In this document: piece after piece, positions 19,579-61,241 of the stretch | Numbering within the stretch: position 1 is the first letter of the stretch | Layout: every line of letters begins with the position of its first letter | NCBI GenBank assembly: GCA_031262525.1 | Contig: JAISHM010000007.1 | Span: 21,635-85,634, forward strand | DNA from: Rickettsiales bacterium | GTDB taxonomy: Bacteria > Pseudomonadota > Alphaproteobacteria > Rs-D84 | Direction of reading: 5' to 3' | DNA: 64,000 nt | Translations under genes and position numbers: made by a program | The notes under the pieces: model-generated | Database searches by the model: none | Seen by the model: only the letters and a program-made list of their open reading frames with translations | What the model was told of the DNA's origin: nothing

Positions 19579-19646
19579 TTTTTGCCTTTCTTTATTTTTA
19601 TGTTTATAATAGACGCATAATAAATAAAATTCAATAGGAAAAAAAA

Positions 19647-20978
19647 ATGAAGGTCGCAATTGCGGGACGCCCGAATACTGGAAAATCAACATTGTTTAAC
19701 GCATTGACGGGAACGCGTGGCGCGCTGGTGCATAATCGCCCCGGGGTTACGCGCGATGTTTTAACAGGGGTCGGGAACCTTGGGGATTTAACCTTTGATT
19801 TAATGGACACTGCTGGTTTGGAGGACCGCGCCACAGAACTGGAAAAACAATCAACCGAGTTTGCTTTGGACGCTGTGCGTTCTGCGGATGCGGTCTTATT
19901 CGTTGTTGATGGACGCACAGGGGTCACAGCGGACGACATTGAATGGGCGCGTCGTATTCGGCGGGCGCGCGGTGGGGCGCAAACTTTGTTGGTTGCGAAC
20001 AAAACAGAATCATCAAAAAAAATAAATGACTTGTCCGATTTTTATAAATTGGGTTTTGGCGCACCTGCGACAATTTCCGCAGAACATAAAATCGGATTTG
20101 ATAGAATTTATGATTTTTTAGAGCCTTTGCGCGATGAAAAAATTGCGACCGAGACCGATAAAAACGCGCGTATGCGTTTAACAATTATGGGACAACCGAA
20201 TGTTGGGAAATCCACACTGGTCAATAAAATCCTGGGGCGCCCGCGCGTGATTGTGCGCGACCAGCCGGGTGTTACACGCGACACTATTGAAATACCAGCA
20301 AAATATCTGAATCGCGATATTATTATAAATGACACGGCTGGATTGCGCAGAAAATCCAATATCACGGACGGATTGGAAACACTATCCGCATTAAAATCTT
20401 TGGACGCACTGAATAAAACAGATGCGGTAATTTTAGTGGTTGATGCAACGCGCGATATTGAAAAACAAGCACTGGGGATTGCATCGCGAATTTATGATGC
20501 CGGGAAGGTTTTATGCATTGCGTTGAATAAATGGGATTTAGTGGAAGAGATAGAACGCGAAGACAAATTATTAAAGTTAAAGCACCAGTTTAAGAAATCT
20601 TTTCATCAAATTATAAAGCCGATGATTTTACCAATGTCGGCGGAAAATGGAATGGGGGTGCGTAATTTAATGCGTCGCGTTTTTGACCTGTATGATAAAT
20701 CACAGAATCGTGTTTCTACTGCATTATTAAATCGCACAATGGAAAAGTTGATAGAAGCGCGCCAACCACCAATGTCGCGATTAAAGCGACCAATGAAAAT
20801 AAAATTCGTGACCCAGGTATCAACATCACCGATTCGCATTACGATAAATGTTGGGGGTGCGTCCGATATCCCAGAATCCTATACGCGGTATTTGCGGCGC
20901 GGTTTGGCGATGGCGCTGGATTGGGAACAACTTCCTATTTTCATTGAGTATAAAAAAACGGAAAATCCATACGATTAA
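19647..20978 (+). CDS. der: Ribosome-associated GTPase Der/EngA (tandem GTPase domains)
   Basis: Two G-domains: GRPNTGKST/DTAGL/NKTE and GQPNVGKST/DTAGL/NKWD, plus a KH-like C-terminus. Confidence 0.95.
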   Translation: MKVAIAGRPNTGKSTLFNALTGTRGALVHNRPGVTRDVLTGVGNLGDLTFDLMDTAGLEDRATELEKQSTEFALDAVRSADAVLFVVDGRTGVTADDIEWARRIRRARGGAQTLLVANKTESSKKINDLSDFYKLGFGAPATISAEHKIGFDRIYDFLEPLRDEKIATETDKNARMRLTIMGQPNVGKSTLVNKILGRPRVIVRDQPGVTRDTIEIPAKYLNRDIIINDTAGLRRKSNITDGLETLSALKSLDALNKTDAVILVVDATRDIEKQALGIASRIYDAGKVLCIALNKWDLVEEIEREDKLLKLKHQFKKSFHQIIKPMILPMSAENGMGVRNLMRRVFDLYDKSQNRVSTALLNRTMEKLIEARQPPMSRLKRPMKIKFVTQVSTSPIRITINVGGASDIPESYTRYLRRGLAMALDWEQLPIFIEYKKTENPYD

Positions 20979-34565: not shown

Positions 34566-37427
34566 TTAAAACTTTATCTTTGTCCCCATATTTAATGATA
34601 CAGATTCAAATACAGACCCATTGTCATACGACACATCGCCATAAAAGTTTGTAGCGTCCCCAGCGCGGATATTTATACCCACACGCACATCAAATCCGTT
34701 GCCACCCATATCAGACACGAAATTATCATTTACCATTTTTATCTTTGTCGCCCCCATCCATTCGCGATAAATTCCACCCTCTATAAACGGGCTGTAAATC
34801 GTTCCCAATCCGTTTTGCAACAACGATGCTTTCAATGCCATACGGGTTTGCAAACTGGTCGTATCACCATATTTTATCATATTGCCAAAGTTTGTAATTT
34901 CCCCATCACCAATGTTTTTGGCATAAATAACTTCGGCGCGTGGTTGCAAGGATAGTTGCGCAACTTTACCTTTTCCTTGCATCCAATCTGGCGCATCAAC
35001 CAAAGTATTTTTTCCAAACGACAACACCCCTGTGATAAAATTCGCGCTCGCGTCATACTTTTGCTCTGTCCCGTCGTTTTTGATATTTTTCATTTGCATT
35101 TCTGTCCAAAAATATCGCGCCGACGCATTCGCAAACCAGCCATTATCATGAACATAGGTTGCATACAACCCCGCGCTGGGGATAGTCGCATTTCCGCCAC
35201 CTGTGAATTCATTATCTTGGTCAATTTTTATATTGTCCGCATACATAAATCCACCCATTGCGCCAATATAAAGTTTTGCATCATCAAACGCGCCAGTTTC
35301 CAGGTCAAATCCTGTTTCAATTCCACCCAAATTCATTGTTGTTTTTGTATGGTCATTTACCGAAACACGCTTTACAAACGGATGAAAATATAATCCAGAT
35401 TCCCCGCCACCCGTCACAGTCAGTTCGTCCAGACGCTTGGTCAGTTCGTTCATACCTGTTTTAACCATCGCCAGATTTAACGCCGGCATATCCGCCGCCG
35501 ATGCGCCCGCGCCTGATAACCCAGTGCGCGATATACGATATTCGCCCCCACCCAGCGACCGCGCAGAATACTCATACAAAGCCGTCTGTGTTTTATTATT
35601 TGATGCTGAAAAACTGACATTCGCCAAATCAGAATCCAACACCAATGATTTAAACACTTGAACATCAAATGAATCCGCTGATGAATCATTCACCATACCA
35701 AAACTGCGCAGGTTTATTATTGTTGCCGTGCTGTTTGTATCAATATCTGTGCTGATTATTATCTGGTCTGATTTTTCAGTCGCACCATCAATATCTATAT
35801 CAAAATTATTTGTCCCCACCAATTCAACATTTGCGATTTTCAAATTATTCAAGTCATAATTTTTTAACGAGACAACCACATTATGGACATGCATATTTTT
35901 TATTTCGCCATAATCCGTTCCATCACCCCAAAAGTTGATAGTGCCACCCGTGATATTATTTCCGATTGCATTATTAAAAAACTGACCATAAACATTTGTA
36001 GTCCCACCCGACATATTAAACATACCATCAAAATTCTCGTTGATTGCATTTTCTTCAAAGGTCAATATACCAGAATGCGTTTTATTTATATAAACATCAA
36101 CGCCCGATTTATTCGCAATTCCACCGCCAAAGATGGTTTCACCGCTCACCCCATCTATGTTTATATCCCCGCGTTCCCCTGCGTTATCGCCATTTCCGTC
36201 AATATAAATATCATTTGCAGCGCCCTTGGCAGTATTTCCAGAAAATTCGGTTATTCCGCCAGTTGTTGTGATATTGATTTCGCCATTCACCCCAGCCCCA
36301 CCGGCCCCAACATTATTCTTCACCGTCATATAAATTGCACCGCCCAGACCACTACCAAAATTCTGTGCCGTATTATCACGAAAAACGACCCCATCACCAA
36401 TATTCAATGTTATATTGCTGTTTGGATTGGTTGAACGACTTTCCAGTCCAGCATAAATAGCACCCCCGCGTTGCGCAGAGGTATTGCTATCAAACACAGA
36501 ATCATCACCAATGTTGATTGTTGATGTACCGGCATTTGTTCCTCCATTTATTCCATAGTGGTAAATTGCACCTCCCCCCGTTCCACCACCAGATGTATTT
36601 TGTGAAAATTCCGCATCTGTGCCGATGTTTGTCAGTTGGTTCATTCCAGAAATACCCCAGACATAATTATATATTGCGCCACCACTTCTTGCCGCTTCAT
36701 TTTCCGAAAAAATAGCATTGTTGCCGATTATTATTTCTGATGCGCTGGTAACACCATAACGCGCCCGCGCGAATATAGCACCGCCACCAGAATCCCCCCC
36801 AGTAGAAGCGCCAGAATTTTTCGTAAATTCCGCATAATCCCCAATTGTTAAACTAACTTTGTTAATGGGATAGGGACTGCCCGACACATCCATACCAATC
36901 GCGCCACCACCATAACCGGATGGGGATGTGTCGGTATGTGAATTTCCATCAAATTTTACTCTATCGCCAATTGTGTATGTAATTGTGCCGCCATCTGTTT
37001 TCTGAAACCCGATTGTACCGCCAACTGGTCCAGATGTTTCGTTATCTGTAAATGTTGCGTTATCACCGATATCCAAATTTATTGCGCGTATCGCCCCCCC
37101 AGCCGTAGCGGAATTAAAATTTGACAGAGTTAAAGAATCCCCGATTGTTAATATCCCGTTTGTATTTTGTAATCCCGAATATAAACCATCCCCATCCAAA
37201 GTCATATTTTCACCTACTATGGCATAAGAAGACGCCGCGGTCGCCCATTCTGCATTCGTAATATCAGCACCAAAAGTTATATCAGATGTTAAATTTATTT
37301 CTGTATCAGCATTTAATAACGCTGTTTTTAATTCGGTAAAGTCCGAAACATTTGTTGCCGCATTCGCGCCCAGCGCAACCAGTAATGAAAAAATTGAAAT
37401 TGTGGATACTTTATAAATTTTTAACAT
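34566..37427 (-). CDS. Autotransporter with polymorphic-membrane-protein (Pmp) type FxxN/GGAI repeats
   Basis: Signal peptide (SIFSLLVALGANAA). At least 7 GGAI motifs (GGAIRAI, GGGAIGM, GGGAIFAR, SGGAIYNY, GGGAIYHY, RGGAIYAG, LGGAIYMT), alternating with 8 FxxN motifs (FTDN, FDGN, FTKN, FSEN, FSQN, FDSN, FRDN, FSGN). C-terminal beta-barrel ends ...NMGTKIKF. Confidence 0.8.
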   Translation of the reverse strand: MLKIYKVSTISIFSLLVALGANAATNVSDFTELKTALLNADTEINLTSDITFGADITNAEWATAASSYAIVGENMTLDGDGLYSGLQNTNGILTIGDSLTLSNFNSATAGGAIRAINLDIGDNATFTDNETSGPVGGTIGFQKTDGGTITYTIGDRVKFDGNSHTDTSPSGYGGGAIGMDVSGSPYPINKVSLTIGDYAEFTKNSGASTGGDSGGGAIFARARYGVTSASEIIIGNNAIFSENEAARSGGAIYNYVWGISGMNQLTNIGTDAEFSQNTSGGGTGGGAIYHYGINGGTNAGTSTINIGDDSVFDSNTSAQRGGAIYAGLESRSTNPNSNITLNIGDGVVFRDNTAQNFGSGLGGAIYMTVKNNVGAGGAGVNGEINITTTGGITEFSGNTAKGAANDIYIDGNGDNAGERGDINIDGVSGETIFGGGIANKSGVDVYINKTHSGILTFEENAINENFDGMFNMSGGTTNVYGQFFNNAIGNNITGGTINFWGDGTDYGEIKNMHVHNVVVSLKNYDLNNLKIANVELVGTNNFDIDIDGATEKSDQIIISTDIDTNSTATIINLRSFGMVNDSSADSFDVQVFKSLVLDSDLANVSFSASNNKTQTALYEYSARSLGGGEYRISRTGLSGAGASAADMPALNLAMVKTGMNELTKRLDELTVTGGGESGLYFHPFVKRVSVNDHTKTTMNLGGIETGFDLETGAFDDAKLYIGAMGGFMYADNIKIDQDNEFTGGGNATIPSAGLYATYVHDNGWFANASARYFWTEMQMKNIKNDGTEQKYDASANFITGVLSFGKNTLVDAPDWMQGKGKVAQLSLQPRAEVIYAKNIGDGEITNFGNMIKYGDTTSLQTRMALKASLLQNGLGTIYSPFIEGGIYREWMGATKIKMVNDNFVSDMGGNGFDVRVGINIRAGDATNFYGDVSYDNGSVFESVSLNMGTKIKF

Positions 37428-46727: not shown

Positions 46728-47621
46728 ATGAGTGATAAAAAGAAAAAACCTTTTCCGTTAAAGCCAATCCTGTTATGGACGGGGTGGTATTTTGTTATTT
46801 CTTATTTGATATTTTTACTGATGTTTAATTTTAACATTTTGCATTTATCAGACTGGGCGATTCTACCCAATATCGGATTTCATGGATTCGGAGGGCTGAT
46901 TTTTGGTATATGCGTATTATCGTTTATTCCAATTTACATTGGTGGATTTATGGTGATTAAAAAGAATGGGCGCGGATTTTTTACCCCCACACCAAAAGAA
47001 AAAGCAGTATATACCCCCGAAATTATTCAACACAAAAACGATTTACCACCAATTGACTTTCCAAAAAATATGCCCGAAGAAATGCGCTTTCCATACACCA
47101 GATTAAAACGCGGAGGGCTGTCCAGTGTCGCAATAGAATGTAATGTTTTGCCAACCCCAAATGATGGTGCAGTTATCAGTGCGGATTGTACGCCAGAGGC
47201 ACCAATACAAATGGATTCAGATATTGCATTACCAGATGACTTTGACATCGCAGATAAAACATCAAACGCGCCTGTATTTCGCGAATTAAACTGGGGCGAA
47301 TCAAAAGACGACAATTCCGACAAGAACGATACTAAATCAGAACAAACCGATGAAATCGCAATTGAATTGCGCGGGGATAAAAAATTCGCGATTATATCGC
47401 ACGATGACCCAGACTTTTGGATTGCGGACGAAAACGAATGGTTCGCAGGCGGAAAACAAAAACCTTCGCCGATAAAATTTGTTATGGCGCGCGCAGAATC
47501 TGAAAACGCGACCCCTGTATTATTATTAAAGACCAAAAACATTATGGATTTGGAAAGCCTGCAAAAAAAATGGGAATCCGATGGTATCTTGGTCATAAAT
47601 GATTTAGACGAATTAAAATAA
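46728..47621 (+). CDS. Hypothetical membrane protein (297 aa; 3 N-terminal TM segments plus acidic C-terminal domain)
   Basis: TM segments WTGWYFVISYLIFLLMF and GGLIFGICVLSFIPIYIGGFMVI. I recognised no family. Confidence 0.6.
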   Translation: MSDKKKKPFPLKPILLWTGWYFVISYLIFLLMFNFNILHLSDWAILPNIGFHGFGGLIFGICVLSFIPIYIGGFMVIKKNGRGFFTPTPKEKAVYTPEIIQHKNDLPPIDFPKNMPEEMRFPYTRLKRGGLSSVAIECNVLPTPNDGAVISADCTPEAPIQMDSDIALPDDFDIADKTSNAPVFRELNWGESKDDNSDKNDTKSEQTDEIAIELRGDKKFAIISHDDPDFWIADENEWFAGGKQKPSPIKFVMARAESENATPVLLLKTKNIMDLESLQKKWESDGILVINDLDELK

Positions 47622-47680: not shown

Positions 47681-48157
47681 ATGAAATATATTGCACTATT
47701 TTCAATATTGTTTTTATGCGCTTGCAACAGCGTTTATATAAACCCAAATACTGATGCAATTGACCCATCACAAACATTCTTTACAGACCGCGGCGGATAT
47801 TCAATGAAACGCGGATTAAAGGAAAAATTGCAACAACGCGGATATAATGTTATCGTGGGCCAGGCAACAAAAAATAGAATTGTTGATGTTGATTCTGATG
47901 ATTTTGATATAACCGCTCTGGATATGGATGTCAGCGATGTTATGAATGCGCGTTATATTGTAAAGGTTTCAGAACGCAAAGAAAAATTTGCATGGTATTG
48001 GTGTCCTTTTAATGGCTGGTGGTGGTGGAATTTTAATGTATCCATTGCGGACCAAAAAACAGGCACAGAAATAATGTCTTGGCGGGGGCGCGGTTGCGCG
48101 AACAGCAGCATGCGAAAACTGGACAGAATACTGGACGACCTTGAATCGCAAAAATAA
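47681..48157 (+). CDS. Hypothetical lipoprotein with a Trp-rich motif
   Basis: Lipobox FLCAC. Contains FAWYWCPFNGWWWWNFN. SD AGGAAG upstream. Confidence 0.6.
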   Translation: MKYIALFSILFLCACNSVYINPNTDAIDPSQTFFTDRGGYSMKRGLKEKLQQRGYNVIVGQATKNRIVDVDSDDFDITALDMDVSDVMNARYIVKVSERKEKFAWYWCPFNGWWWWNFNVSIADQKTGTEIMSWRGRGCANSSMRKLDRILDDLESQK

Positions 48158-49374: not shown

Positions 49375-49398
49375 AAATGCGGTTAAAACCGCATTTTT
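49374..49398. terminator. Bidirectional terminator between trxB and the bamB-like gene
   Basis: AAAATGCGG-ttaaaa-CCGCATTTT. Confidence 0.6.
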
Positions 49399-50146
49399 AT
49401 TTTCCGTTTATTGCGTTGAACTTTTCATCATCAACCATAACAAAGTAATTTCCATTATCATTTATAACTTTTGGGGTGGCGGATTTTTTAGTGTTCGCAG
49501 TCCAATAAATTTTTCCATTTTTTGCATTTAATGCGTATAAAATTTTATCCACACTATTCACAAAAACAATATCATTTAATAAAACAAAGTTTTTATCCGT
49601 GGATAAATTTGCGCACCATTTTTTGTTTCCATTTTGTATATTTAACGCGCAAAATTCCCCACCCAATCCCCCAACAAATAACAAATTATTATTCGCAATT
49701 GGCATCGCCGTTATATCCACTAAACGAGACCCACCCAACATATTGGAATTTTTATAAACATCGGCAATCCATAAAATTTGACGATTGCGAGGATTTATTT
49801 TTGCAACTTCTCCAGTGGTCAGCGCCGCATAAACAAAGTTTTTATAAAATACAGGATAACGCGGTGTATCTATCTTTTCATTTGTTGCAAAACCCGCAAA
49901 GATTTTTCTGTCCGGATTTCCGTCTTTTTTCTCAAAAACTTCGTTATCCAGGGTCTGCACAAATTTGTCTGTAATTTCAGGTGTTATAATTTTTGCATTT
50001 GCAAATTCAGACATTGGAATATCCCCAATAGTTTCAACACCAACCGAATCAAATACTGGTGTCCGCGCGCCTGGCAAAATCGGGTCCGAAGACGAACACG
50101 CCGAAACAGCAATCATAACCAACAAAACAGATATTATTTTTTTCAT
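49397..50146 (-). CDS. BamB-like PQQ-repeat beta-propeller lipoprotein (short, 249 aa)
   Basis: Lipobox AVSACS. Repeats of type LYALNAKNGKIYW, FCALNIQNGNKKW and VAKINPRNRQILW. Follows a yfgM-like gene, as in the conserved yfgM-bamB order. Confidence 0.65.
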   Translation of the reverse strand: MKKIISVLLVMIAVSACSSSDPILPGARTPVFDSVGVETIGDIPMSEFANAKIITPEITDKFVQTLDNEVFEKKDGNPDRKIFAGFATNEKIDTPRYPVFYKNFVYAALTTGEVAKINPRNRQILWIADVYKNSNMLGGSRLVDITAMPIANNNLLFVGGLGGEFCALNIQNGNKKWCANLSTDKNFVLLNDIVFVNSVDKILYALNAKNGKIYWTANTKKSATPKVINDNGNYFVMVDDEKFNAINGK

Positions 50147-50151
50147 TTTTA

Positions 50152-50835
50152 CTACTTTATTATTTGTGCAATTGCGCGGATATTTTCAGGGGTATTTTTA
50201 TCAGATATAATTTCATCTATGATTTTATTTGCCGCCGTCGTATCATCAGACGCGATATATTTTTGCGCAACCATTATCATCGCAGTATAATACACAGGTG
50301 ATTTTTTTGTCATAGCGGGACGCATAAATTTTGCGAATTCGTCTGCGCTCATTTTATCGCCATTTATTGTTGCCAAACGAACCCTTGCCAGGTCGCGGAA
50401 ATCACGCGTTGCGCCACCCGTCGCCAGTTGTGCCAATTTTTCGGTTCCGCGTCCTGCCTGGATATCTATCATCGCAGATTCAAACAATGCCAAATCCGAC
50501 ATTCCGTTTGATACTTTTTCTGCCGCCATTTGATACATTTTTTCTGCGCCCGCCGCGTCCCCAGATGCCTGCAAGGCCAATGCGTCCTCGAACATTTTTG
50601 CCTGGGACACTGCACTGCGATACGCAAAGTGTTTATACAATTGGGTACCCGCCACAATCATAACCAGCGCAATCGCACATATTATAATCGCCCGCATATT
50701 TTTACGCACAAAATTATAGACTTTTTCTGCGTGCACTTCCTCGCTAATTTCGCGATACAGGGCATCGTCCGAATGGTTATTTACAGGTGCCGGGGCCAGT
50801 TTTGTTTTTTGATTTCTGCGCAATATATTTGCCAT
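50152..50835 (-). CDS. YfgM-like single-pass TPR-like membrane protein
   Basis: One TM segment (AIIICAIALVMIVAGTQLY) followed by a helical-repeat domain. Synteny with the bamB-like gene. Confidence 0.55.
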   Translation of the reverse strand: MANILRRNQKTKLAPAPVNNHSDDALYREISEEVHAEKVYNFVRKNMRAIIICAIALVMIVAGTQLYKHFAYRSAVSQAKMFEDALALQASGDAAGAEKMYQMAAEKVSNGMSDLALFESAMIDIQAGRGTEKLAQLATGGATRDFRDLARVRLATINGDKMSADEFAKFMRPAMTKKSPVYYTAMIMVAQKYIASDDTTAANKIIDEIISDKNTPENIRAIAQIIK

Positions 50836-50900
50836 TTTATTTCCTTTGTGTTTTATTATATATTATACAAATAATAGTAATTTTATCCCGAATGTGCAAG

Positions 50901-50929
50901 TTGATTTTAACCTGCGTGCGATGTATAAT
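50901..50929 (+). promoter_or_regulatory. Promoter of rpoH (TTGATT-17-TATAAT), 6 nt from the ATG at 50936
   Basis: TTGATT at 50901-50906 and TATAAT at 50924-50929. No SD before the ATG. Shares the 14-mer TGCGATGTATAATG with the rnpA promoter. Confidence 0.5.
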
Positions 50930-50935
50930 GTATTT

Positions 50936-51826
50936 ATGGATAAAAATTTACCTGTTATTAAAAAAAATGATTTACCGATTATATCGGATGACCGGTCGTT
51001 ATCGCGATACATAGATTATATCCAACGATTCCCTATTTTATCCGCAGAAACCGAGTATGAATACGCAACCGACTGGACAGAAAACCACAACCCTGCCGCT
51101 GCGGAAAAATTGGTTACATCGCATCTGCGTATGGTTGTGGCAACAGCGTATGATTTTAAGAATTATGGCATTCCTTTATCGGACCTGATTGCGTCGGGAA
51201 ATTTGGGGCTGATGCAGGCAGTGCAAAAATTTGACCCGTCGCGTGGTTATCGCTTTTCAACATACGCGATGTTTTGGGTACGTGCGGAAATGTATGACTT
51301 GATTTTATCAAATTGGTCAATTGTAAAAATAGGAACCAGCGCAAATCAAAAACGTGTATTTTTTAACCTGGGACGGGCGCGACGCGCATTGGGAATTATG
51401 GACGGGGTGTTGTCGCCAAATCAAACAAAACAAATTGCAGATTATCTGGATGTAAATGAATCTGATGTGTCGCGTATGGCGGGGCGTATGGGCGCGCGTG
51501 ATGTTTCATTGAATGCTCCGGCACATAATGATTCGGATTCTGACACATCTGATATTTTATCCAACCTGGCGGATACAACCGATTCAATAGAGGACAGATT
51601 GGGCGATTATCAGGAACAAAAAAAGGGACGCGAATTATTAAAAAAACATTTGGAAATTTTGCCACAACGCGACCGCGAGATTCTAATTGCACGACGGCTG
51701 GCGCGACCCGCACAAACTTTGGAACAATTGTCGGAAAAATATGGCGTATCGCGCGAAAGAATCCGCCAAATAGAAGAACGCGCATTTACAAAATTACAAT
51801 CGGCAATTCTGGCGGACAAAAAATGA
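50936..51826 (+). CDS. rpoH: RNA polymerase sigma-32 (heat shock) factor
   Basis: LSRYIDYIQRFPILSAETEYEYA, LVTSHLRMVV, GNLGLMQAVQKFDP, the RpoH-box-like IVKIGTSANQKRVFFNL, and region 4 LEQLSEKYGVSRERIRQIE. The start was trimmed from 50846. Confidence 0.9.
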   Translation: MDKNLPVIKKNDLPIISDDRSLSRYIDYIQRFPILSAETEYEYATDWTENHNPAAAEKLVTSHLRMVVATAYDFKNYGIPLSDLIASGNLGLMQAVQKFDPSRGYRFSTYAMFWVRAEMYDLILSNWSIVKIGTSANQKRVFFNLGRARRALGIMDGVLSPNQTKQIADYLDVNESDVSRMAGRMGARDVSLNAPAHNDSDSDTSDILSNLADTTDSIEDRLGDYQEQKKGRELLKKHLEILPQRDREILIARRLARPAQTLEQLSEKYGVSRERIRQIEERAFTKLQSAILADKK

Positions 51827-52833
51827 AAAAATTAGTTTTAATTTTTGTGGGGGTATTGTTTTGTGGCGCGGCGAACGCACTGACACACAAAACAGATGAC
51901 TGGAAATTTAATTTATCTGGCTATGGCACTGGAATGGGTATTTCGTCCAACGAAAAGTCGCAAATTCGTGGGGATTGGCAACTGGTGGGCAGCGCCACAT
52001 ACAGCATAAACAACGATTGGCGCGTGGGCGCGACATTGGGGCACAGCGCATGGAATGTTTTGCGTCATAATATCGTCAAAGATGGATTTGTTTTTATGGA
52101 AAATCCGTGGGGCAGGGCCGAGGTTGGAATAACCAGTTCCATTGCCAGTAAATTGGCATTGGGATTACCTGATGTTGGTGGATTGCAATTTAATCGTAAT
52201 TTTTGGGTTCTGCGCAATGTTGATGCCGAAAATATCTTGTGGAAGAATTCGGTTTATGATGGGTCGGGGGAATATCGGATAAATTTGGCGTCCCGTCCGG
52301 GTGATATTCAATATGGATTATCTGTGGTACCGCGTGGGCGGAGTTTTAACACCTCTGTTGACGCGGGATTAAAATATAAAATAGGCGACGGCAAAACAAA
52401 ATATGCGTTATCATTCGGCGCAATGTTTATGGATTCACCCGATGGCTTTAATGGGAATGATTACGCGCCAAAGGTTTTTTCAGATTGGCGCGCGGGGGTG
52501 TCGCTTGGGCTGAATATCCAGTATAATAGTTTTTTATGGGGACTGACCGCGACAGCGAATTACGACCAAAATCCACGCGGTGAATTATCAGACGGGATTG
52601 GGATTGGGTCTGGTATCAGTTATGACTTATTATCTTGGTCGGCGTCATTATCGTATAAATTTTCACAAATTGGATTGTTTCATAGCGGCGAGAACAATTG
52701 TTTTGCGCATACTGGCGTGGCGTCTATCCGATACAAAATAAACCAATTTTGGACTGTGTGGGTATCTGGTGGCGCGACGCGAATGCAAAAAACACATCCA
52801 TTTATTGCGGGTGGTATAACACTGAAATTTTAA
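51823..52833 (+). CDS. Porin-like outer membrane beta-barrel protein
   Basis: Signal peptide (VLFCGAANA), alternating amphipathic beta-strand pattern, and C-terminal ...GGITLKF. ATGA overlap with the rpoH stop. Confidence 0.65.
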   Translation: MKKLVLIFVGVLFCGAANALTHKTDDWKFNLSGYGTGMGISSNEKSQIRGDWQLVGSATYSINNDWRVGATLGHSAWNVLRHNIVKDGFVFMENPWGRAEVGITSSIASKLALGLPDVGGLQFNRNFWVLRNVDAENILWKNSVYDGSGEYRINLASRPGDIQYGLSVVPRGRSFNTSVDAGLKYKIGDGKTKYALSFGAMFMDSPDGFNGNDYAPKVFSDWRAGVSLGLNIQYNSFLWGLTATANYDQNPRGELSDGIGIGSGISYDLLSWSASLSYKFSQIGLFHSGENNCFAHTGVASIRYKINQFWTVWVSGGATRMQKTHPFIAGGITLKF

Positions 52834-52871
52834 TTTTTTTTTATGGCTAAATTTGATATAATTAGCCTGTT

Positions 52872-53825
52872 ATGATTATGCGAATGTTCGGCATTGCGGC
52901 CATGTTTTTTTGTTTATTATCACAAACATCTTTTGCAAATGAAGATGCACTGGATTCCGCTTTGCAGAATGCGAGAACCAGTTGCGCGGGTATTTCTGAT
53001 GAATTTGATAAATTAAAAACTTTGGCGGGGATAAATACCGCGATAACGGGCGTTGGGACACTGGCGGGGGGGGGGGCGGTTGCAACAGGATTTGTAAAGC
53101 AGTCGCGGGACGCGCAAATTGCAAAATTGGAAATGGCAAAACTTACCAAAATATCCTATAATAATAATTCTTCCTATAATGCCAGCGCCACTGATGTAAA
53201 ATCTGCAATGAATTCGTATTACGAAAAACATAAAAACGACACCCCCGAACAGATAGAGACCGAAATAGATAAATTGACCAAACAATCCAAAAACTTGGGT
53301 AATTGGCGCACTGGATTACTGGCGGGCAGCACCGCTACAAACATTGCGGGCGCGATTATCGCGGGTAATAATCGTGCGTCCAGTGATTTACACGGCGCGG
53401 TCGCGGATTGTAAATCGTCGGTATCTGCGTTGCGCGGCGCGTATATGCAGGCGAGATTAGATGGCGCAAACACAAAGAAAATTGAACAGGCAATAACAAT
53501 AGTTTCAGAATGCGGTAAATGGGAAAATACCGATATATCAAAAATAGATAATCGCGCGACGGGCGCTATGTGGTCATCGGTGGCTGGCGCAACGCTGGGA
53601 ACCGCGGGAACAATCACCAGCGCATTTGCAAATACCGATAAAACTCGAAACGACGATTCCGACAACGGAAAACAAAAAGAAAAAAATCTGAATACGGCAT
53701 CAAATGTTTTGGCGATTGGAACAACAGCGGCATCGCTGACCGCGACTATATTCAATGCGACACAAATCGCGGCAATTAAAAAGGCGTCTGCTGTGGCGGA
53801 TGAATGTCAAGAGGCATTGCAATGA
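52872..53825 (+). CDS. Secreted Ala/Gly/Thr-rich protein (317 aa), function unknown
   Basis: Signal peptide (FFCLLSQTSFANE). Four ~20-aa G/A/T-rich hydrophobic segments (INTAITGVGTLAGGGAVATGF, LLAGSTATNIAGAIIAGN, SSVAGATLGTAGTITSAFA, VLAIGTTAASLTATIF) and 4 Cys. Confidence 0.6.
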   Translation: MIMRMFGIAAMFFCLLSQTSFANEDALDSALQNARTSCAGISDEFDKLKTLAGINTAITGVGTLAGGGAVATGFVKQSRDAQIAKLEMAKLTKISYNNNSSYNASATDVKSAMNSYYEKHKNDTPEQIETEIDKLTKQSKNLGNWRTGLLAGSTATNIAGAIIAGNNRASSDLHGAVADCKSSVSALRGAYMQARLDGANTKKIEQAITIVSECGKWENTDISKIDNRATGAMWSSVAGATLGTAGTITSAFANTDKTRNDDSDNGKQKEKNLNTASNVLAIGTTAASLTATIFNATQIAAIKKASAVADECQEALQ

Positions 53826-56719
53826 AAAAATTACTGATGTTATTTTTTATTGTTTTATTTGCAATCCCAGTATTCGCAGATGATGTCCCTACCGACCAAG
53901 ATAACTTATTTTTCAGCGCGGAAAATGTAAAGGGCGCAATCGTTGATTTTGTCCCAGAAAAAAACCAAGAAAAAGTTGCAAATTTATACGAAGAATTGAT
54001 GAATCAAGAAAATGGGAAAATGTCAATTGAAAAATTATTTTTGATTTGTCGTGCTGCGGGTTTTAATACTTATCGCGTTGATGGTTATAACAAGTGCGCT
54101 GAATTTATCGGACAAATGTTAAACGATGTTGATGCTGATTATGAATTGGCAATGGGAATGTTTTGTCCTGGGCCCGATGAAAACGGAAAAAATCCGAATG
54201 GTTTACAATCTATTACCGACCAAACACAAATTGGGGAATTTTGTATCAGCAGTAATATAGCCGCAGGTGAAGTTATATTCCGAAAAGATAATAAAACTTG
54301 TACATGTTTGGCGACAGCATGCAACCCAGGCTTTGGATTTAATAATGGTCGTGAAACGCGCAGTGGCACCTGTATGAAAATAATTGGTCCAAAACCAACC
54401 ACCCGTAAAGAATTCAAGAAAGACTCTAAAACAGACACACTTGAAAAGTGTAAAAATTTTTGTATCAGCGATGCCCAGGCAAATGATTACAATGTTATAA
54501 AGATTCAACTGAATCACAAGGACAACAAATGTATCTGTAATCCAAACACGATTGACGACGAACGCGGCGAAGAATTACGCGCGGCGGCATTAAAGTCTTT
54601 CAAGGTTTGTGGGGTAGACAAGGGTCGCACTGGTGGTAAAGAAATCTGTGTTCTGGATATATTTAACAACACAAATGTTGGACAACTCCAAGCAGCTGGA
54701 TTGGCGCGCGAATATGCACGTATAAAATATAACGATACAATACAATGTGAAACGCAATATCGTGAATCTGGTAATGATGATTATATCCGCTGCCACAGCA
54801 CAAAAAAAGGTGTAAAAAATTATTATGAATTTAAGTTTGACGATGTCACAGAAAGTATAGATGGACAAATCAAAGCGGATACAGTTGCCGGGATTTGCGC
54901 GCTGCATAACCTGGGCGAATATAGTGGGATTGGTTGCATTGTTAAAAATAACGAAAAACTTTGTACTGGGAAACTGGCACAATCTGCAAAAGAATTTGGT
55001 ATGTCTGTAAAGTTTTCTGGACATACATGTGATATATTGGACAGACAACTTGCGCGCGAAACTGCTGATAAAGAACTGGCCACATTAAAAAATATTGACC
55101 CACGTATATTTTATGATGGAATCCAAATTCAGGGTTCTGCGAATATTGTTTCACAATTACGTACTTATGTTCAAAAAATGGGATATCCCGCTAAAAAATT
55201 CACATGTGATTCTGGTGTTGGAAAAATTAAACGTGGCACAACAAGTTTAATGGAATATGTTACTGGAAATACTGATGATGTTCTGCGTTGTTATGTTGAT
55301 GATATGCCTGTTGATTTTGTGTTTGACGATTTTTCAGAAAGTTGGCTGTATGTTAGAGAGGCTGGCGAATCAGGTATTGGTTGTATCGGTGTCGGTGGAA
55401 AATACGCGAATGAAAAATGTTATGGTCTGAATCAACAACAATGCACGGACCTGGACCGGGGGTTAAAGGTAAAACACCCCGATATGGGCGGGACAAAGTG
55501 GGAAGGCGGACAATGCGTCCTGCGCGATGCTAAACAGGCCGCAAAATATGATATTGCAATCCAGGTTGGTGGTGCGCTTGTGGCGGCGGCCGATTGTTTG
55601 CTTTTAACCAAGACTGGTTGCGCGATTCTTGCGGTGGAATATAGTGGTTTGATGATGGAACTGAATACCCAGGATATAATGAAAGATATGGCGGATAAAT
55701 TTTTAACACAATCTACAAAATGTAATTCTCGCGATTGCGCAAAACAAACAATTAGCACATTGGGGGGACAGGTATTGAGTGTCCAGGAAGCATTAAAACC
55801 AGAAACAATTCGCGCAATCGACGAAGAATTTGCGCGCCTGATAACATTATTGGACGACTCAGATGTATCGTTATCGTCAGATTCTGATTATGAAGATATC
55901 GTTAAACAACTGGGGGGCGACCCAAATGATTCAAATGGAACAACATTAAAGGTATTAAATAAAATTGGATTGGTTGCGCAATTTACATCTATTGGTATAT
56001 CGGGATTTCGTTTAACAAGTGGCGCAATACAAAAACTAATTTCGCGCAGTGCGGCAAAATCCGGCACAAAAACCGCCGCCGCTGCCAGCAAAGTAAAAGT
56101 ATTTAATTCTGCGGGTAAAGAAGTTGCAAAAAATTCAATGCCGCGACCATTGAACCAAAAAAATATAGATGAACTTGATAAGATAAATCAACAATTAAAA
56201 ACTGCAACTGGACAGGTAAAAACAAAATTAAACCTACAGAAAAACACTCTGTTGAACGCGATAAGAAAACAAATGATTGGTGACGGGGTACCGGACGATG
56301 AAATAACGGCCGCGCTGGCGCGTTTTTATGATAACCCTCCGCCCGCCAGCGCAGCAGATAATGCGACGCGCGCCGTTGACGATGTTGTGGATAACACCCC
56401 ACCCGCGCCAAAATCAGAACCAACGCCAGTGGTTAAACCCGTGGATAACACTCCACCCGCACCAAAACCAACACCTGTGCCGATTTCGGAAACAACCACA
56501 TTACGGACACAGGCCAGCAATACGTTTGATAATTATTTATTCAATTTCAAAAAAAATAATACCACAGCTAGTTTTCCAAAATCAAGAATGACGGACACGG
56601 AATGGGCAAAACTAAATAGTGAATTGACGGACGATGGTGTAAAACTAGTCCAAAAAGGTGATTATATGACTTTCGTAAAAACCGCAGACGACGCGCCAGT
56701 GGTTAAACCCCGTGGATAA
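53822..56719 (+). CDS. Large cysteine-rich secreted/membrane protein (~965 aa) with C-terminal proline-rich repeats, function unknown
   Basis: Signal peptide MKKLLMLFFIVLFAIPVFADD. About 600 aa containing more than 30 Cys, then a hydrophobic stretch IAIQVGGALVAAADCLLLTKTGCAILAV. The C-terminal region contains VDNTPPAPKSEPTPVVKPVDNTPPAPKPTPVP. ATGA overlap with the upstream gene. Confidence 0.7.
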   Translation: MKKLLMLFFIVLFAIPVFADDVPTDQDNLFFSAENVKGAIVDFVPEKNQEKVANLYEELMNQENGKMSIEKLFLICRAAGFNTYRVDGYNKCAEFIGQMLNDVDADYELAMGMFCPGPDENGKNPNGLQSITDQTQIGEFCISSNIAAGEVIFRKDNKTCTCLATACNPGFGFNNGRETRSGTCMKIIGPKPTTRKEFKKDSKTDTLEKCKNFCISDAQANDYNVIKIQLNHKDNKCICNPNTIDDERGEELRAAALKSFKVCGVDKGRTGGKEICVLDIFNNTNVGQLQAAGLAREYARIKYNDTIQCETQYRESGNDDYIRCHSTKKGVKNYYEFKFDDVTESIDGQIKADTVAGICALHNLGEYSGIGCIVKNNEKLCTGKLAQSAKEFGMSVKFSGHTCDILDRQLARETADKELATLKNIDPRIFYDGIQIQGSANIVSQLRTYVQKMGYPAKKFTCDSGVGKIKRGTTSLMEYVTGNTDDVLRCYVDDMPVDFVFDDFSESWLYVREAGESGIGCIGVGGKYANEKCYGLNQQQCTDLDRGLKVKHPDMGGTKWEGGQCVLRDAKQAAKYDIAIQVGGALVAAADCLLLTKTGCAILAVEYSGLMMELNTQDIMKDMADKFLTQSTKCNSRDCAKQTISTLGGQVLSVQEALKPETIRAIDEEFARLITLLDDSDVSLSSDSDYEDIVKQLGGDPNDSNGTTLKVLNKIGLVAQFTSIGISGFRLTSGAIQKLISRSAAKSGTKTAAAASKVKVFNSAGKEVAKNSMPRPLNQKNIDELDKINQQLKTATGQVKTKLNLQKNTLLNAIRKQMIGDGVPDDEITAALARFYDNPPPASAADNATRAVDDVVDNTPPAPKSEPTPVVKPVDNTPPAPKPTPVPISETTTLRTQASNTFDNYLFNFKKNNTTASFPKSRMTDTEWAKLNSELTDDGVKLVQKGDYMTFVKTADDAPVVKPRG
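56387..56467 (+). repeat. Tandem 54-nt-period repeat encoding VDNTPPAPK; a third broken copy lies at 56695-56721
   Basis: GTGGATAACACCCCACCCGCGCCAAAA (56387-56413) versus GTGGATAACACTCCACCCGCACCAAAA (56441-56467). GCCAGTGGTTAAACCCGTGGATAACA (56425-56450) recurs at 56695-56721 with one extra C. Confidence 0.85.
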
Positions 56720-56832
56720 CAAACCAACGATATATTTGATAAATTCCGAATACCAAGCCACACTTGACCCAAATAAAATAGATGTATTATTTAATACTAC
56801 TGGAAACACTCTATCAAAATAACACCCGTATT

Positions 56833-58470
56833 TTAACCCCGTTTCACGCGGCGCAGGATTGTCATTATTCCGGCCGGCGTCATCCCAGGAATTCGCGATA
56901 ACGCCGCAATATTTTCAGGACGCGCGCGGGTCAATTTTTCCACCAACTCATTTGTTAAACCTGGTAAATTTTCATACTCAAAATCACGCGGTATTTTTAT
57001 ATTTCTATCCCGATTATAGGTTTCAATCTCACGCGCATTGCGCGCAATATAGCCCGCGTAAAGTTTATCATTTTCAACAACAATTTCTGCGCGCGCATTT
57101 AATTTTTTTTCATATTCATCGTGCGCGATTAAACCATTATCTGTCGCCAGTTTTCCCAATCTCTGGACTGCGTTATCCGCGCGCAACGACAATCTATATT
57201 CTGCACGCGACGAAAACATACGATAAGGCTCATCAACCCCCAGTGTCGTAATATCGTCAATCATAACACCAATCAGCGAATTAGCGCGTGTCAAATTGAG
57301 CGGCGCCCCCCCCGCCGCCGAACCCGCAACCAAACCCTGGGCAGCGGCCTCTTCATAACCACTGGTACCGTTTATTTGTCCCGCAAAAAATACACCCGGA
57401 TAATCATACGATTCCAGATTAGCATTCAATGCGCGCGCGTCAATCGCATCGTATTCAATTGCGTATCCGTATCTTTCAATTTCTGCATTTTCCAGACCAG
57501 GAATTGAACAAATAAATTTATCCTGGACCGCTGCGCCAAAACTGGTTGAAATGCCATTCGGATAGATTAAATCGGAATTTTCCCCCTCTGGCTCTAAAAA
57601 AATATGATGTGAATTATGCGCGGGGAAGCGCATTACTTTATCTTCCAATGATGGACAATAGCGCGGACCAGTTCCCACAATTTCCCCATTATACATTGGC
57701 GCATCTGTAATACATTCCCGAATAATTTTGTGTGTTTCTTCTGTCGTTTTTGTAATAAAACAATTGGATAATTTATCCCCATCGCTTGCAATTTCTGCAC
57801 TTGAAAAAAATCCGTGCGACATATCACTGGGTTGAATTTCGCATTTACTGAAATCTATGCTGCGCGCAAAAATTCGCGCGGGGGTCCCCGTTTTCAACCT
57901 GATTAAATCAAAACCTGCCGCGCGCAACACACCTGATAAATTTTTGTCTGCATCTTGATAATTTCCATCGTCCATCAAACGCCCAGATTCAATCTTTTCC
58001 ACGCCCCGATGCACAACACCACATAAAAAAGTCCCAGTTGTGATAACAATCGCGCCCGATTGATATTTATTATTTACAATTTTATTTTTTATATCAAAAT
58101 CAAAAACAGATTCATAAACAATTGTCAAAGTTTTTAATTTTTTTAATTGCGCTATTACCGCAACGCGATATTTTTCGCGGTCAATTTGCGCCCGCAAGGC
58201 GCGCGTTGCCGCGCCATGATTTGCATTCAACATTCGCCAATGAATGGCCGATGCGTCCGCCGCAACCGGCATAACCCCGCCAAACGCGTCGATTTCCGCA
58301 ACCATTCCCGACTTTCCAGGACCGCCAATACTGGGGTTACAAGACATTGCGCCAATATCTGATGTATTCATTGTAATCAGCAAAGTTTTTTTACCAATGC
58401 GCGCCGCGGCGGCCGCGGCCTCGACCCCAGCATGCCCCCCACCAATAACAATTACATCAAATTTGGTCAT
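56833..58470 (-). CDS. mnmG: tRNA uridine-5-carboxymethylaminomethyl modification enzyme MnmG/GidA
   Basis: FDVIVIGGGHAGVEAAAAAARIG, SCNPSIGGPGKS, GPRYCPSLEDK, and FFAGQINGTSGYEEAAAQG. 545 aa, shorter than typical. Confidence 0.95.
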   Translation of the reverse strand: MTKFDVIVIGGGHAGVEAAAAAARIGKKTLLITMNTSDIGAMSCNPSIGGPGKSGMVAEIDAFGGVMPVAADASAIHWRMLNANHGAATRALRAQIDREKYRVAVIAQLKKLKTLTIVYESVFDFDIKNKIVNNKYQSGAIVITTGTFLCGVVHRGVEKIESGRLMDDGNYQDADKNLSGVLRAAGFDLIRLKTGTPARIFARSIDFSKCEIQPSDMSHGFFSSAEIASDGDKLSNCFITKTTEETHKIIRECITDAPMYNGEIVGTGPRYCPSLEDKVMRFPAHNSHHIFLEPEGENSDLIYPNGISTSFGAAVQDKFICSIPGLENAEIERYGYAIEYDAIDARALNANLESYDYPGVFFAGQINGTSGYEEAAAQGLVAGSAAGGAPLNLTRANSLIGVMIDDITTLGVDEPYRMFSSRAEYRLSLRADNAVQRLGKLATDNGLIAHDEYEKKLNARAEIVVENDKLYAGYIARNAREIETYNRDRNIKIPRDFEYENLPGLTNELVEKLTRARPENIAALSRIPGMTPAGIMTILRRVKRG

Positions 58471-59024: not shown

Positions 59025-61241
59025 ATGGCGGAGAAATTCAGTATTTTATCTTTTTCGGGCAAGGGCAAAGGCCTTAAAATTTTTGATTCGTCCGTCTATA
59101 AAGACCACGAAAAGGCACCGATTGCGCGCTATTTTTGGAATATGCGCTATAAAATTTATGTATGGATTGGGTGCGCATTGGCGTTTGCCGCGGCGTTTCC
59201 GCTGGAACATTTATGGCGCTATGGCGGGACGCCTGCGACATGGAAATGGATGGGTGTATATTTTACAAATGCTTTTTCCAGTTTTGGTTTGTCGGTAATC
59301 GCGGAAATCCCGGCATGGATTTATCGGACTATTTTTTATACGGATATTATGACAATTACCCCGTTGATACCAGTTGCTGTATTTTTCATTTTAACTAATT
59401 CTATTTTGTTAGAGGAATTTAACCCCGCTGGTAAGGATACATTAAAAGAAGAATCATCGCGCAAGGCCAATGACGAAGATATAAAAAAGATGGGGCTTTT
59501 GTCTGGGTTTATGATGGTGCTGGGCTATTGGAAGAAAAAGCCGCTGATGATGTCCGAAACATTATCTGCATTGTGTTTGGCCCCCCCCGGAACTGGTAAA
59601 ACCCAAGGGGTTGTGTTACCAACAATTTTTGATAGCACGTCTGTTTCAATGATTATCAACGACCCAAAGCCAGAATTAAAACAAAAATCATCGGCGTATC
59701 GTTCAAAAAATGTTGGACCGGTATTTATTATGAATTGGGCGGGTCAGGACGACCCAGCGAATGGAATTTACTATCCATCATGGAACCCATTGTCGCCATC
59801 ACATGTGCCATTTAATTCCGAAGAGCGGGATTTGTATATTGACTCTATCTGTGCGACACTGATTGCAGAAAAAGCATCATCATCGGCAGACCCTCACTGG
59901 ACGATTGCTGGTCGTGCTGCGCTGTCGGGATTGGTAAATTTTATGGTGTCCAAGATTGATAAGGCCAAGGCCGATGATTATTTTTATGCACGCTTAAATT
60001 CTAATGAATTTGATGGCGAAGATGCGGCATTACTGGGCGAATACTATACAATGATGAATGACCCGAATGCTGATGCTGCGCGCTATGCCTTGGCGAATGG
60101 GCAATTGACGGCAATGAACTATGTTCATATTGGAACATGGGCAAAGATTCCGGATAATTGGCTGGGGCGCGAGGCTTCATTCTCTATGATTATGGACTGG
60201 TTAAATAAAAGTCAGGTTGCAATTGCCGAAGAATTAGAAAATCGTAAAAAACAAGGCGACCAAATGTTGATGATGGCGGACCCGATGAAGGATGTCTTTC
60301 AGGACGCCACGAATGAGGCGATTCAATACGGATATGCGCACCGCGCGGTTTTGGAATTGACACAACTGGCGAATACCCCGGACAAAGAACGCGGCTCTAT
60401 TATTTCAACGGTATTGTCGGGCTTATCCATATTCCGAAATGCGGCGGTAAAAAATCGCACCAGCCACAGCGATTTTCATTTCAGCGATTTACGCGGAATG
60501 ATTGACCCAAATGACGGAAAAATGAAACCGGTTACCGTATATCTATCTATAAACCAGGTTGATGCCGATGCGTTAAATCCTATTACGGCTATTTTTGTTG
60601 AACTGATGTCGCGCTTTTTAATCGCAAATCCACCAAACGGGGAACACGCGGGTCAGGCATTGGGACCGACACCTGTTTTATTCTTGCTGGACGAAATGCC
60701 AAAGATGCAAAAAATGCAGGCAATTATCCAGGGACCCGATATTGGTCGCGGGCAAAAAGTTTCGTATTTAATTATCGGCCAGGATATCCACCAGATTCAA
60801 GAAAAATACGGCGCGGACGCGGCGGCAACCATTATTTCAACGACGGCGGCAAAAATTGTATTCCGTCAGAATGACCCAGATACAGCAAAACGATTCAGCG
60901 ATATGATGGGCGAAAAAGTCAAGGAAGAAACAAAAAAAGACAAAGATGGCAAGGAAACAAAGAATGTGGATAGAAAGCCACTATACAGCCCAATGGATAT
61001 TATGAAACTGGATGCAAAAAAACAACTGGTTATATTCCAGGGATTTTATAATCGACCGATAGAGGCCGACTATACCCCTGCATACAGCGACCCGCGCCTA
61101 TCCGCGTTTATGGCGATGGGGGAATGCCCACCGCTGCCGGAATTTTTAATTCCATCACATCACGCGATTATGCGGTACTCGGGTAATCCACGAGTCTATG
61201 ACACACAAACAAAAACAATCAAAGAATTGTCAGCGCAATGA
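59025..61241 (+). CDS. virD4: Type IV secretion coupling protein VirD4/TraG
   Basis: N-terminal TM segments, Walker A LAPPGTGKTQGVVLPT, Walker B PVLFLLDEMPKM, and IIGQDIHQIQEKYG. Confidence 0.9.
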   Translation: MAEKFSILSFSGKGKGLKIFDSSVYKDHEKAPIARYFWNMRYKIYVWIGCALAFAAAFPLEHLWRYGGTPATWKWMGVYFTNAFSSFGLSVIAEIPAWIYRTIFYTDIMTITPLIPVAVFFILTNSILLEEFNPAGKDTLKEESSRKANDEDIKKMGLLSGFMMVLGYWKKKPLMMSETLSALCLAPPGTGKTQGVVLPTIFDSTSVSMIINDPKPELKQKSSAYRSKNVGPVFIMNWAGQDDPANGIYYPSWNPLSPSHVPFNSEERDLYIDSICATLIAEKASSSADPHWTIAGRAALSGLVNFMVSKIDKAKADDYFYARLNSNEFDGEDAALLGEYYTMMNDPNADAARYALANGQLTAMNYVHIGTWAKIPDNWLGREASFSMIMDWLNKSQVAIAEELENRKKQGDQMLMMADPMKDVFQDATNEAIQYGYAHRAVLELTQLANTPDKERGSIISTVLSGLSIFRNAAVKNRTSHSDFHFSDLRGMIDPNDGKMKPVTVYLSINQVDADALNPITAIFVELMSRFLIANPPNGEHAGQALGPTPVLFLLDEMPKMQKMQAIIQGPDIGRGQKVSYLIIGQDIHQIQEKYGADAAATIISTTAAKIVFRQNDPDTAKRFSDMMGEKVKEETKKDKDGKETKNVDRKPLYSPMDIMKLDAKKQLVIFQGFYNRPIEADYTPAYSDPRLSAFMAMGECPPLPEFLIPSHHAIMRYSGNPRVYDTQTKTIKELSAQ

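Follow-up and report, generated by a model that had tools for sequence, protein, structure and literature searches.

A conserved rpoH-porin gene pair and an orphan gene pair with its own predicted promoter, probably juxtaposed by rearrangement in an Rs-D84 alphaproteobacterium

The stretch of DNA analysed here, called the window, comprises 64,000 nucleotides (nt) of contig JAISHM010000007.1 (assembly GCA_031262525.1), from a Rickettsiales bacterium of the GTDB order Rs-D84. It carries rpoH, the gene of a sigma-32 family heat-shock sigma factor, followed on the same strand by a porin gene and by genes for a secreted protein of 317 amino acids (aa) and a cysteine-rich protein of 965 aa. A first-pass annotation had read these four genes as one transcription unit driven by the rpoH promoter, possibly a stress-coupled surface or secretion system. 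Our results make it probable that they are instead two independent expression units, rpoH-porin and the 317-aa/965-aa pair, which a rearrangement has set side by side in this lineage. Judging by spacing, adjacency and conserved motifs, rpoH and porin would form a two-gene operon ancestral to an order-level clade of reduced-genome gut Alphaproteobacteria. The 317-aa and 965-aa genes would constitute a clade-restricted, translationally coupled orphan module, a separate unit with its own predicted extended -10 promoter.

For all three proteins encoded downstream of rpoH, homologues come exclusively from uncultured gut Alphaproteobacteria in human, chicken, ruminant and termite metagenomes. Many of the source records carry the label Candidatus Enterousia, and the clade corresponds to Rs-D84, an order with fermentative metabolism and genomes of ~1 Mb or smaller (PMC12306168). 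The relatives were surveyed with one genome per GTDB species; 264 relatives were found and 80 loci returned, to which three metagenome loci were added.

The rpoH-porin pair and its conserved neighbourhood

The rpoH gene (50936..51826, + strand, 296 aa) is identified by the NCBIfam subfamily model PRK06596, whose cut-off it passes (311.2 bits against 241), and by the Pfam domains Sigma70_r2 (E = 1.3e-17) and Sigma70_r4 (E = 7.5e-14). It falls narrowly below the cut-off of the equivalog model TIGR02392 (rpoH_proteo; 303.4 bits against 323.1). The RpoH box has the consensus Q[RK][RK]LFFNLR, and the translation contains the RpoH-box-like motif QKRVFFNLG. The ATG at 50936 is the sole start common to the relatives, and coordinate 50901 marks the first base of a -35-like hexamer and not the gene start.

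This hexamer belongs to a predicted sigma-70-type promoter, TTGATT-17 nt-TATAAT (50901..50929, + strand), with 10 of 12 positions matching in a consensus scan. The -10 hexamer ends 6 nt 5' of the ATG, and the mRNA is therefore predicted to be leaderless or nearly so. The same arrangement recurs among the relatives: of 77 distinct loci, 75 have a -10 hexamer whose end lies 4-12 nt 5' of the rpoH ATG, 53 have a TTGnnn -35 element, and none has a Shine-Dalgarno sequence before rpoH. The promoter reads GCAAGTTGATTTT, 17 nt, TATAAT, 6 nt, ATG in the sub-clade of the window, and CTTGATAA...TGnTATACT, 9 nt, ATG in the Enterousia group. Folding gave no RNA thermometer-like 5' structure, and the first 160 nt of the window rpoH mRNA are no more structured than shuffled sequences (z = +0.13). 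Thus, rpoH appears to be expressed from a leaderless or near-leaderless mRNA, with transcription predicted to start at or within ~3 nt of the AUG.

The start codons of rpoH and of the divergent yfgM-like gene upstream lie ~55-100 nt apart (50835-50936 in the window, and in the loci of relatives), so that the two divergent promoters must overlap or sit back-to-back. As a separate observation, the rpoH -10 region of the Enterousia group (TATACTATA) is nearly palindromic and could serve the opposite strand too.

The overlap between the rpoH stop codon and the start of the following gene, which the first-pass annotation had pointed out, is present as ATGA at 51823-51826. This close junction is shared by all relatives examined. 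Among the 83 distinct loci, the porin start lies -11 to +10 nt from the rpoH stop in 76; the median distance is +1 nt, and the two genes overlap in 24. When the junction sequences were read by eye, Shine-Dalgarno-like GGA or AAGGA was seen in the final rpoH codons.

The downstream gene of the junction (51823..52833, + strand, 336 aa) was described in the annotation as a porin-like barrel gene, and this description holds for the family. It comprises 116 homologues and is clade-restricted, and Porin_4 (PF13609) is matched by 9 of 42 aligned members (best E = 2.8e-11). The window protein itself has no Pfam or NCBIfam match, and the family profile found no sequence match in the PDB. Over its full length the window protein is 39% identical to P0016, a homologue which its source names 'porin' and which carries PF13609. 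It also has the ends of an outer-membrane porin, with an N-terminus (MKKLVLIFVGVLFCGAANA) of hydropathy 1.98 in which residues 1-19 form a signal peptide, and a C-terminus ...GGITLKF in which F336 is nearly invariant.

Upstream of rpoH and on the opposite strand lie two genes for envelope proteins. A YfgM-like, membrane-anchored TPR_21 protein of 227 aa is encoded at 50152..50835 (- strand; Pfam TPR_21, E = 2.4e-10), and a BamB-like lipoprotein of 249 aa at 49397..50146 (- strand; Pfam PQQ_2/BamB, E = 1.1e-15, with an LPAM_1 lipobox match). The neighbourhood survey, which had been proposed together with the operon, returned the divergent order bamB-like, TPR_21, then rpoH, porin in 79 of 80 species-level genome loci, and the 80th ends at a contig edge. 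All three metagenome contigs, whose porins are 35-50% identical, have this order as well. The four-gene block is hence invariant across 83 distinct loci and ~80 species of Rs-D84/Candidatus Enterousia, and the TPR_21 and BamB genes adjoin each other in all loci reaching far enough upstream. On the porin side the flanks have been reshuffled repeatedly: a convergent gene follows porin in 53 of 75 loci, with an identity that varies widely, while the bamB-yfgM-rpoH-porin core is constant. From flanks that are reshuffled around an intact core, we infer that rpoH and porin are co-transcribed and translationally coupled, and that the arrangement has been kept by selection across the order.

An alternative explanation is that the adjacency is a neutral product of genome compaction, that the porin is made mainly from its own unrecognised promoter inside rpoH, and that the coupling has no regulatory meaning. 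The genomes of the clade are indeed reduced, under ~1 Mb (PMC12306168). The promoter scan of the rpoH 3' end covered sigma-70-type motifs only, and a major porin would by textbook knowledge be expected to need far higher expression than a sigma factor. However, rpoH-porin is kept together in ~80 species, among which porin identity drops to 35-50% and the flank beyond the porin has been rearranged repeatedly. Promoter-like sites are also depleted rather than enriched in the rpoH 3' end, where the final 200 nt of 82 loci hold one extended -10 and no -35/-10 match, below the coding background of 0.31 per kb. Moreover, the promoters examined here, those of rpoH and of the 317-aa gene, are strong and easily recognised as TGnTATAAT or -35/-10 elements. 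An internal promoter and terminator, which the annotation had named as evidence that would separate rpoH from the barrel gene, have no counterpart at this junction, where no sigma-70-type promoter or terminator-like site was found. We therefore regard neutral compaction as unlikely.

Under the two-gene operon, the sigma-70-type promoter would give a transcript starting at or near the rpoH AUG, leaderless, with the porin translated from the same RNA through coupling or re-initiation. The porin, led by a Shine-Dalgarno sequence, would then be produced in excess over the leaderless sigma-32, and sigma-32 activity would be controlled mainly after translation. Together with the yfgM-like and bamB-like genes, rpoH-porin may form a block concerned with outer-membrane protein production and proteostasis. 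Literature searches for a rpoH-porin operon gave nothing relevant, and we found no description in the literature of an order-wide, apparently leaderless rpoH-porin bicistron placed head-to-head with yfgM-bamB.

Two further observations concern this block. The 249-aa BamB-like lipoprotein aligns to positions 90-232 only of the 233-position Pfam PQQ_2 (BamB) model and may be a truncated beta-propeller. In addition, several public records of metagenome-assembled genomes with Bacteroidota names hold the alphaproteobacterial bamB-yfgM-rpoH-porin block (L011, L013, L015, L017 and L051, 'uncultured Muribaculaceae'; L079, 'Bacteroides fragilis'), which probably reflects mis-binning or mislabelling.

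The junction between the porin gene and the orphan pair

The porin stop codon (52831-52833) is separated from the ATG of the 317-aa gene at 52872 by 38 nt, as the first-pass annotation had stated. A T9 tract stands directly 3' of the stop (52834..52842, + strand), without a preceding hairpin (fold z-score +1.2). Inside the gap lies a predicted extended -10 element, TGaTATAAT (52854-52862, + strand), which ends 9 nt 5' of the ATG and is followed by no Shine-Dalgarno sequence before it. This motif is conserved with the gene: of 67 distinct loci, 54 have TGnTATAAT upstream of the 317-aa gene, compared to ~3 expected from the coding background, with its end 5-12 nt from the ATG in 26 loci.

The 317-aa gene (52872..53825, + strand) and the 965-aa gene (53822..56719, + strand) are themselves closely coupled. 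The stop of the former and the start of the latter share ATGA at 53822-53825, which confirms the overlap described earlier, and in all other loci examined the pair is adjacent and overlapping, in unrelated surroundings. Of the porin loci, 75 extend at least 1.5 kb past the porin, and the pair follows in none of them. Likewise, 62 pair loci reach at least 500 nt upstream, and in none of these does rpoH, porin, yfgM or bamB lie close by. The absence of the linkage from relatives thus applies to the third and fourth genes, and does not extend to the porin gene, which follows rpoH throughout.

In the closest relatives of the window genome and a few others (12 of 75 loci), the porin gene is instead followed by a convergent membrane orphan and then by der/engA. 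Counterparts of these two genes are found in the window at 18982-20978, ~30-32 kb from the porin, and the multi-pass membrane orphan of the window is 71% identical to the gene following porin in one of these relatives (L002). Since the genes that follow porin in relatives are displaced in the window, we place a rearrangement breakpoint directly after the porin gene and consider the juxtaposition with the pair lineage-specific.

Repeats flanking the pair, looked for as an insertion signature, were not found, and the window holds no paralogues of the pair. Relatives of the pair were absent from viral contigs, PHROGs gave no matches, and the model of the 965-aa protein has no fold match in BFVD. 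Nothing in these results points to the pair as cargo of a phage or mobile element.

The proposal of a single rpoH-promoter operon for a stress-coupled surface or secretion system has several features in its favour: the four genes lie on the same strand with two ATGA overlaps and a third gap of just 38 nt, all three downstream products carry signal peptides, and a terminator hairpin is lacking from rpoH to 56719. The last of these had already been noted by the annotation and agrees with our scans. There is no credible + strand terminator from rpoH to 56719 in the consensus scan, where the sole + strand match (52404-52422) lies inside the porin gene and the total of nine matches compares with 8.8 expected from shuffles. 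By folding, no hairpin terminator follows the porin and no significant hairpin follows the 965-aa gene. Nevertheless, the linkage of the third and fourth genes to the first two is missing from 75 of 75 porin loci and 62 of 62 pair loci, the 38-nt gap holds the conserved extended -10, and the porin-pair junction is a rearrangement breakpoint. None of the proteins matches a secretion-system family either. We thus consider the single operon very unlikely, and the stress-coupled system built upon it is not supported.

Some points weigh against two separate units as we describe them. As the porin gene ends without a hairpin terminator, transcripts may read through into the 317-aa gene, and the four genes may be partly co-transcribed in this one genome. 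A promoter of another type within rpoH, e.g., a sigma-32-dependent one, would escape a scan for sigma-70-type motifs, and the tight rpoH-porin spacing might partly come from genome compaction. The promoters and the leaderless start are predicted from consensus motifs and their conservation, the barrel fold of a porin that has no direct Pfam match is putative, and the localisation and interaction of the pair are read from signal peptides, conserved cysteines and gene coupling.

The exported orphan proteins

The 317-aa protein belongs to a large family, defined by homologue searches and modelled with AlphaFold, with more than 1736 clusters at 90% identity that are 50-65% identical to the query. 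An exhaustive HMMER profile search gathered 440 clusters at 50% identity and recovered nothing beyond the family itself. The protein has a Sec signal peptide, and the family has four conserved cysteines (two invariant, two nearly so) and four conserved Gly/Ala/Thr-rich segments. The first-pass annotation was right that the protein is secreted and Ala/Thr/Gly-rich; its four 'hydrophobic' segments, however, have Kyte-Doolittle means of 1.0-1.4, below the transmembrane threshold of 1.6, and none is of transmembrane grade.

No match to the 317-aa protein was found in Pfam, NCBIfam, PHROGs or a PDB profile search. Pfam applied to 61 family members gave scattered weak matches to coiled-coil and DUF models, among them DUF6944 in 11 of 61 (best E = 7e-4), and longer members with N-terminal extensions gave nothing. 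The family was seen in two of 80 genome loci of 21 kb. At a genome size of ~0.9 Mb, this points to about a single copy in each genome.

For the 965-aa protein, 53 homologues with lengths of 964-1680 aa were detected, and Pfam and NCBIfam gave no match. The protein contains 30 cysteines, as expected from the earlier description of a ~965-aa cysteine-rich product, and all lie within residues 76-639, which indicates that the protein folds outside the cytoplasm. Sixteen cysteines are invariant across the homologues. The N-terminal ~700 residues are conserved and the C-terminus is variable.

Structure predictions, also proposed at the outset, were obtained for both orphan proteins, with no significant fold match for either. 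The AlphaFold model of the 317-aa protein is all-helical with a predicted local distance difference test (pLDDT) score of 66, and Foldseek found no match to it in the PDB at E <= 0.001. The model of the 965-aa protein (pLDDT 71) consists of a signal peptide, a cysteine-rich alpha/beta ectodomain (~25-575) that is modelled with confidence over ~30-580, a hydrophobic segment at 577-605, helices, a disordered Pro-rich linker and a C-terminal domain at 888-955; the protein has a single hydrophobic segment of transmembrane grade. Neither its profile against the PDB nor Foldseek of its model against PDB and BFVD gave a significant match (none at E <= 0.001). The C-terminal domain (window 56483-56686) is small, alpha/beta and confidently modelled. 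It has the consensus ...LPKSRLTDxEWxxLNxSL..GVxLV... and occurs in one to three copies in the variable C-termini of ~13 or more homologues, and it could be assigned to no family.

The overlapping partner is not always this long. In about one third of the loci, the open reading frame (ORF) that overlaps the stop of the 317-aa gene is of only 230-500 aa and not of at least 900 aa (L107, L113, L115, L121, L137, L168 and others). At least two of these short products (L137 and L168) recognisably resemble the 965-aa protein over their N-terminal ~100 residues, which points to split genes or to partners of a shorter class.

The 3' end of the 965-aa gene has some peculiarities of its own. Its Pro-rich tail contains a 54-nt direct repeat (encoding VDNTPPAPK twice; window 56387-56475), and a 17-mer that encodes APVVKP at 56424-56440 returns at 56694-56710, just 5' of the stop. 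Downstream of a CCCC run, the -1 frame reads on beyond the stop for 36 further codons, nearly to the mnmG stop (56712-56823). This open frame was considered as a frameshifted C-terminus of the protein and dropped, as the extension has no homologue.

The signal peptides and conserved cysteines suggest that both products of the pair are Sec-exported. Most likely, the conserved helical 317-aa protein and the conserved N-terminal cysteine-rich ectodomain of its partner, of which the distal part evolves fast, would form a complex in the envelope or at the surface. Such a conserved envelope or surface complex is our best guess for what the pair may encode. Components of type IV secretion (VirB5/TrbJ and VirB6/TrbL) were considered for the pair and rejected, as there is no Pfam or NCBIfam match and no multi-pass topology.

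The pair could also be a secreted pore-forming or toxin-like two-component system directed at host or neighbouring cells, with the helical protein as the membrane-inserting subunit. The 317-aa protein is all-helical with a signal peptide and four conserved amphipathic Gly/Ala/Thr-rich segments, its partner has a variable C-terminus bearing repeated small domains, and the weak top Foldseek matches include AhlB, XaxB and MakA of the ClyA family of alpha-pore-forming toxins. These toxin matches are not significant, however, with E = 0.2-0.7 and template modelling (TM) scores of 0.15-0.24, and the best Foldseek matches as a whole have E = 0.1-0.7 and TM-scores of 0.15-0.26. In addition, the 317-aa protein is conserved like housekeeping proteins (50-65% identity) and appears roughly single-copy, no toxin or immunity domains were found by Pfam, and the proteins were not found in viral contigs or PHROGs. 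A toxin-like role is therefore quite improbable in our judgement, and an envelope or surface complex remains our best guess.

Genomic setting and comparison with known systems

The window is otherwise ordinary chromosome, in which rlmN, parA, parB, trxB, the bamB-like and yfgM-like genes, rpoH, porin, the orphan pair, mnmG, sspB, virD4 and a pseudouridine synthase gene are found, with acrB, pnp, mutS, lptD, lptF/G and der at greater distance. The gene after the 965-aa gene is mnmG (56833-58470, - strand), convergent as first described. A VirD4/TraG-type type IV coupling protein is encoded at 59025-61241. It is 55-71% identical across the clade, and its gene is found no more than a few kb from rpoH-porin in many species (many of loci L004-L090). 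This recurrence suggests that a chromosomal type IV secretion system is conserved in the reduced genomes of Rs-D84. Three further ORFs of the window have no Pfam match at the thresholds used: 34566-37427 (- strand, 953 aa), 46728-47621 (+ strand, 297 aa) and 47681-48157 (+ strand, 158 aa).

In textbooks, sigma-32 genes serve as examples of genes that stand alone and are regulated via mRNA structure. An rpoH that is apparently leaderless, joined to a porin gene and placed beside yfgM and bamB across an order would amount to a different wiring of the heat-shock sigma factor. It suggests a way in which bacteria with genomes of less than ~1 Mb may link the control of cytoplasmic stress with the production of outer-membrane proteins. 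The analysis also removes a false lead, as the two large orphans are probably not part of an rpoH operon, and flags the orphan pair as highly conserved, clade-specific exported proteins in abundant uncultured gut bacteria of humans and livestock.

A bolder version can be formulated, in which bamB-yfgM/rpoH-porin is a hard-wired envelope-proteostasis hub where sigma-32 supply tracks the outer-membrane protein load and replaces the sigma-E type pathway of envelope stress in these minimal genomes. The leaderless sigma-32 mRNA would then have both its transcription and its translation physically tied to synthesis of the major porin, and the pair would be a new clade-defining, roughly single-copy envelope machine unrelated to any known family. 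We hold this version to be doubtful, and keep to two expression units made adjacent by rearrangement as the probable explanation.

When compared with known systems, the 317-aa protein shares with ClyA-family proteins (AhlB, XaxB, MakA) the long helical bundles of ~320-340 aa, the hydrophobic or amphipathic helices and the organisation in multi-gene modules. However, the sequences are not similar, the 317-aa protein contains conserved cysteines of a presumed disulfide type, and its partner is unlike any toxin component. The porin resembles the general porins of Porin_4 (PF13609) in its length of ~340 aa, its signal peptide, its C-terminal Phe and the Porin_4 matches of its family members, whereas the window protein is below the Pfam thresholds, its family profile is without a PDB match and the family is clade-restricted.

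The genes upstream of rpoH recall the yfgM-bamB-der cluster known from Escherichia coli and further Proteobacteria, as a TPR_21 gene is followed by a BamB-like gene and der is still near, downstream of porin, in 12 of 75 loci. The Rs-D84 cluster differs in being head-to-head with rpoH-porin, in its short BamB (249 aa) and, in the window, in having der ~30 kb off.

In E. coli, rpoH is transcribed alone, and its mRNA is thermosensing, with secondary structure near the start codon controlling translation. RpoH of the window agrees with that of E. coli and other proteobacteria in belonging to the group-3 sigma-70 family, with regions 2 and 4, an RpoH-box-like motif and a score that passes the PRK06596 cut-off, while it stays just under the rpoH_proteo equivalog cut-off (303 against 323 bits). 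Unlike the E. coli gene, rpoH of Rs-D84 is apparently leaderless, without a Shine-Dalgarno sequence or predicted 5' structure, and is joined to a porin gene. A comparison can finally be drawn with rpoE-rseABC. Here, the sigma factor is of the sigma-32 type and not an extracytoplasmic function (ECF) sigma factor, the downstream gene encodes a porin, i.e., a substrate, and not an anti-sigma factor, and the regulatory link is putative. By analogy, the two systems would have in common a stress sigma factor gene that is co-transcribed with envelope genes and tied to the biology of outer-membrane proteins.

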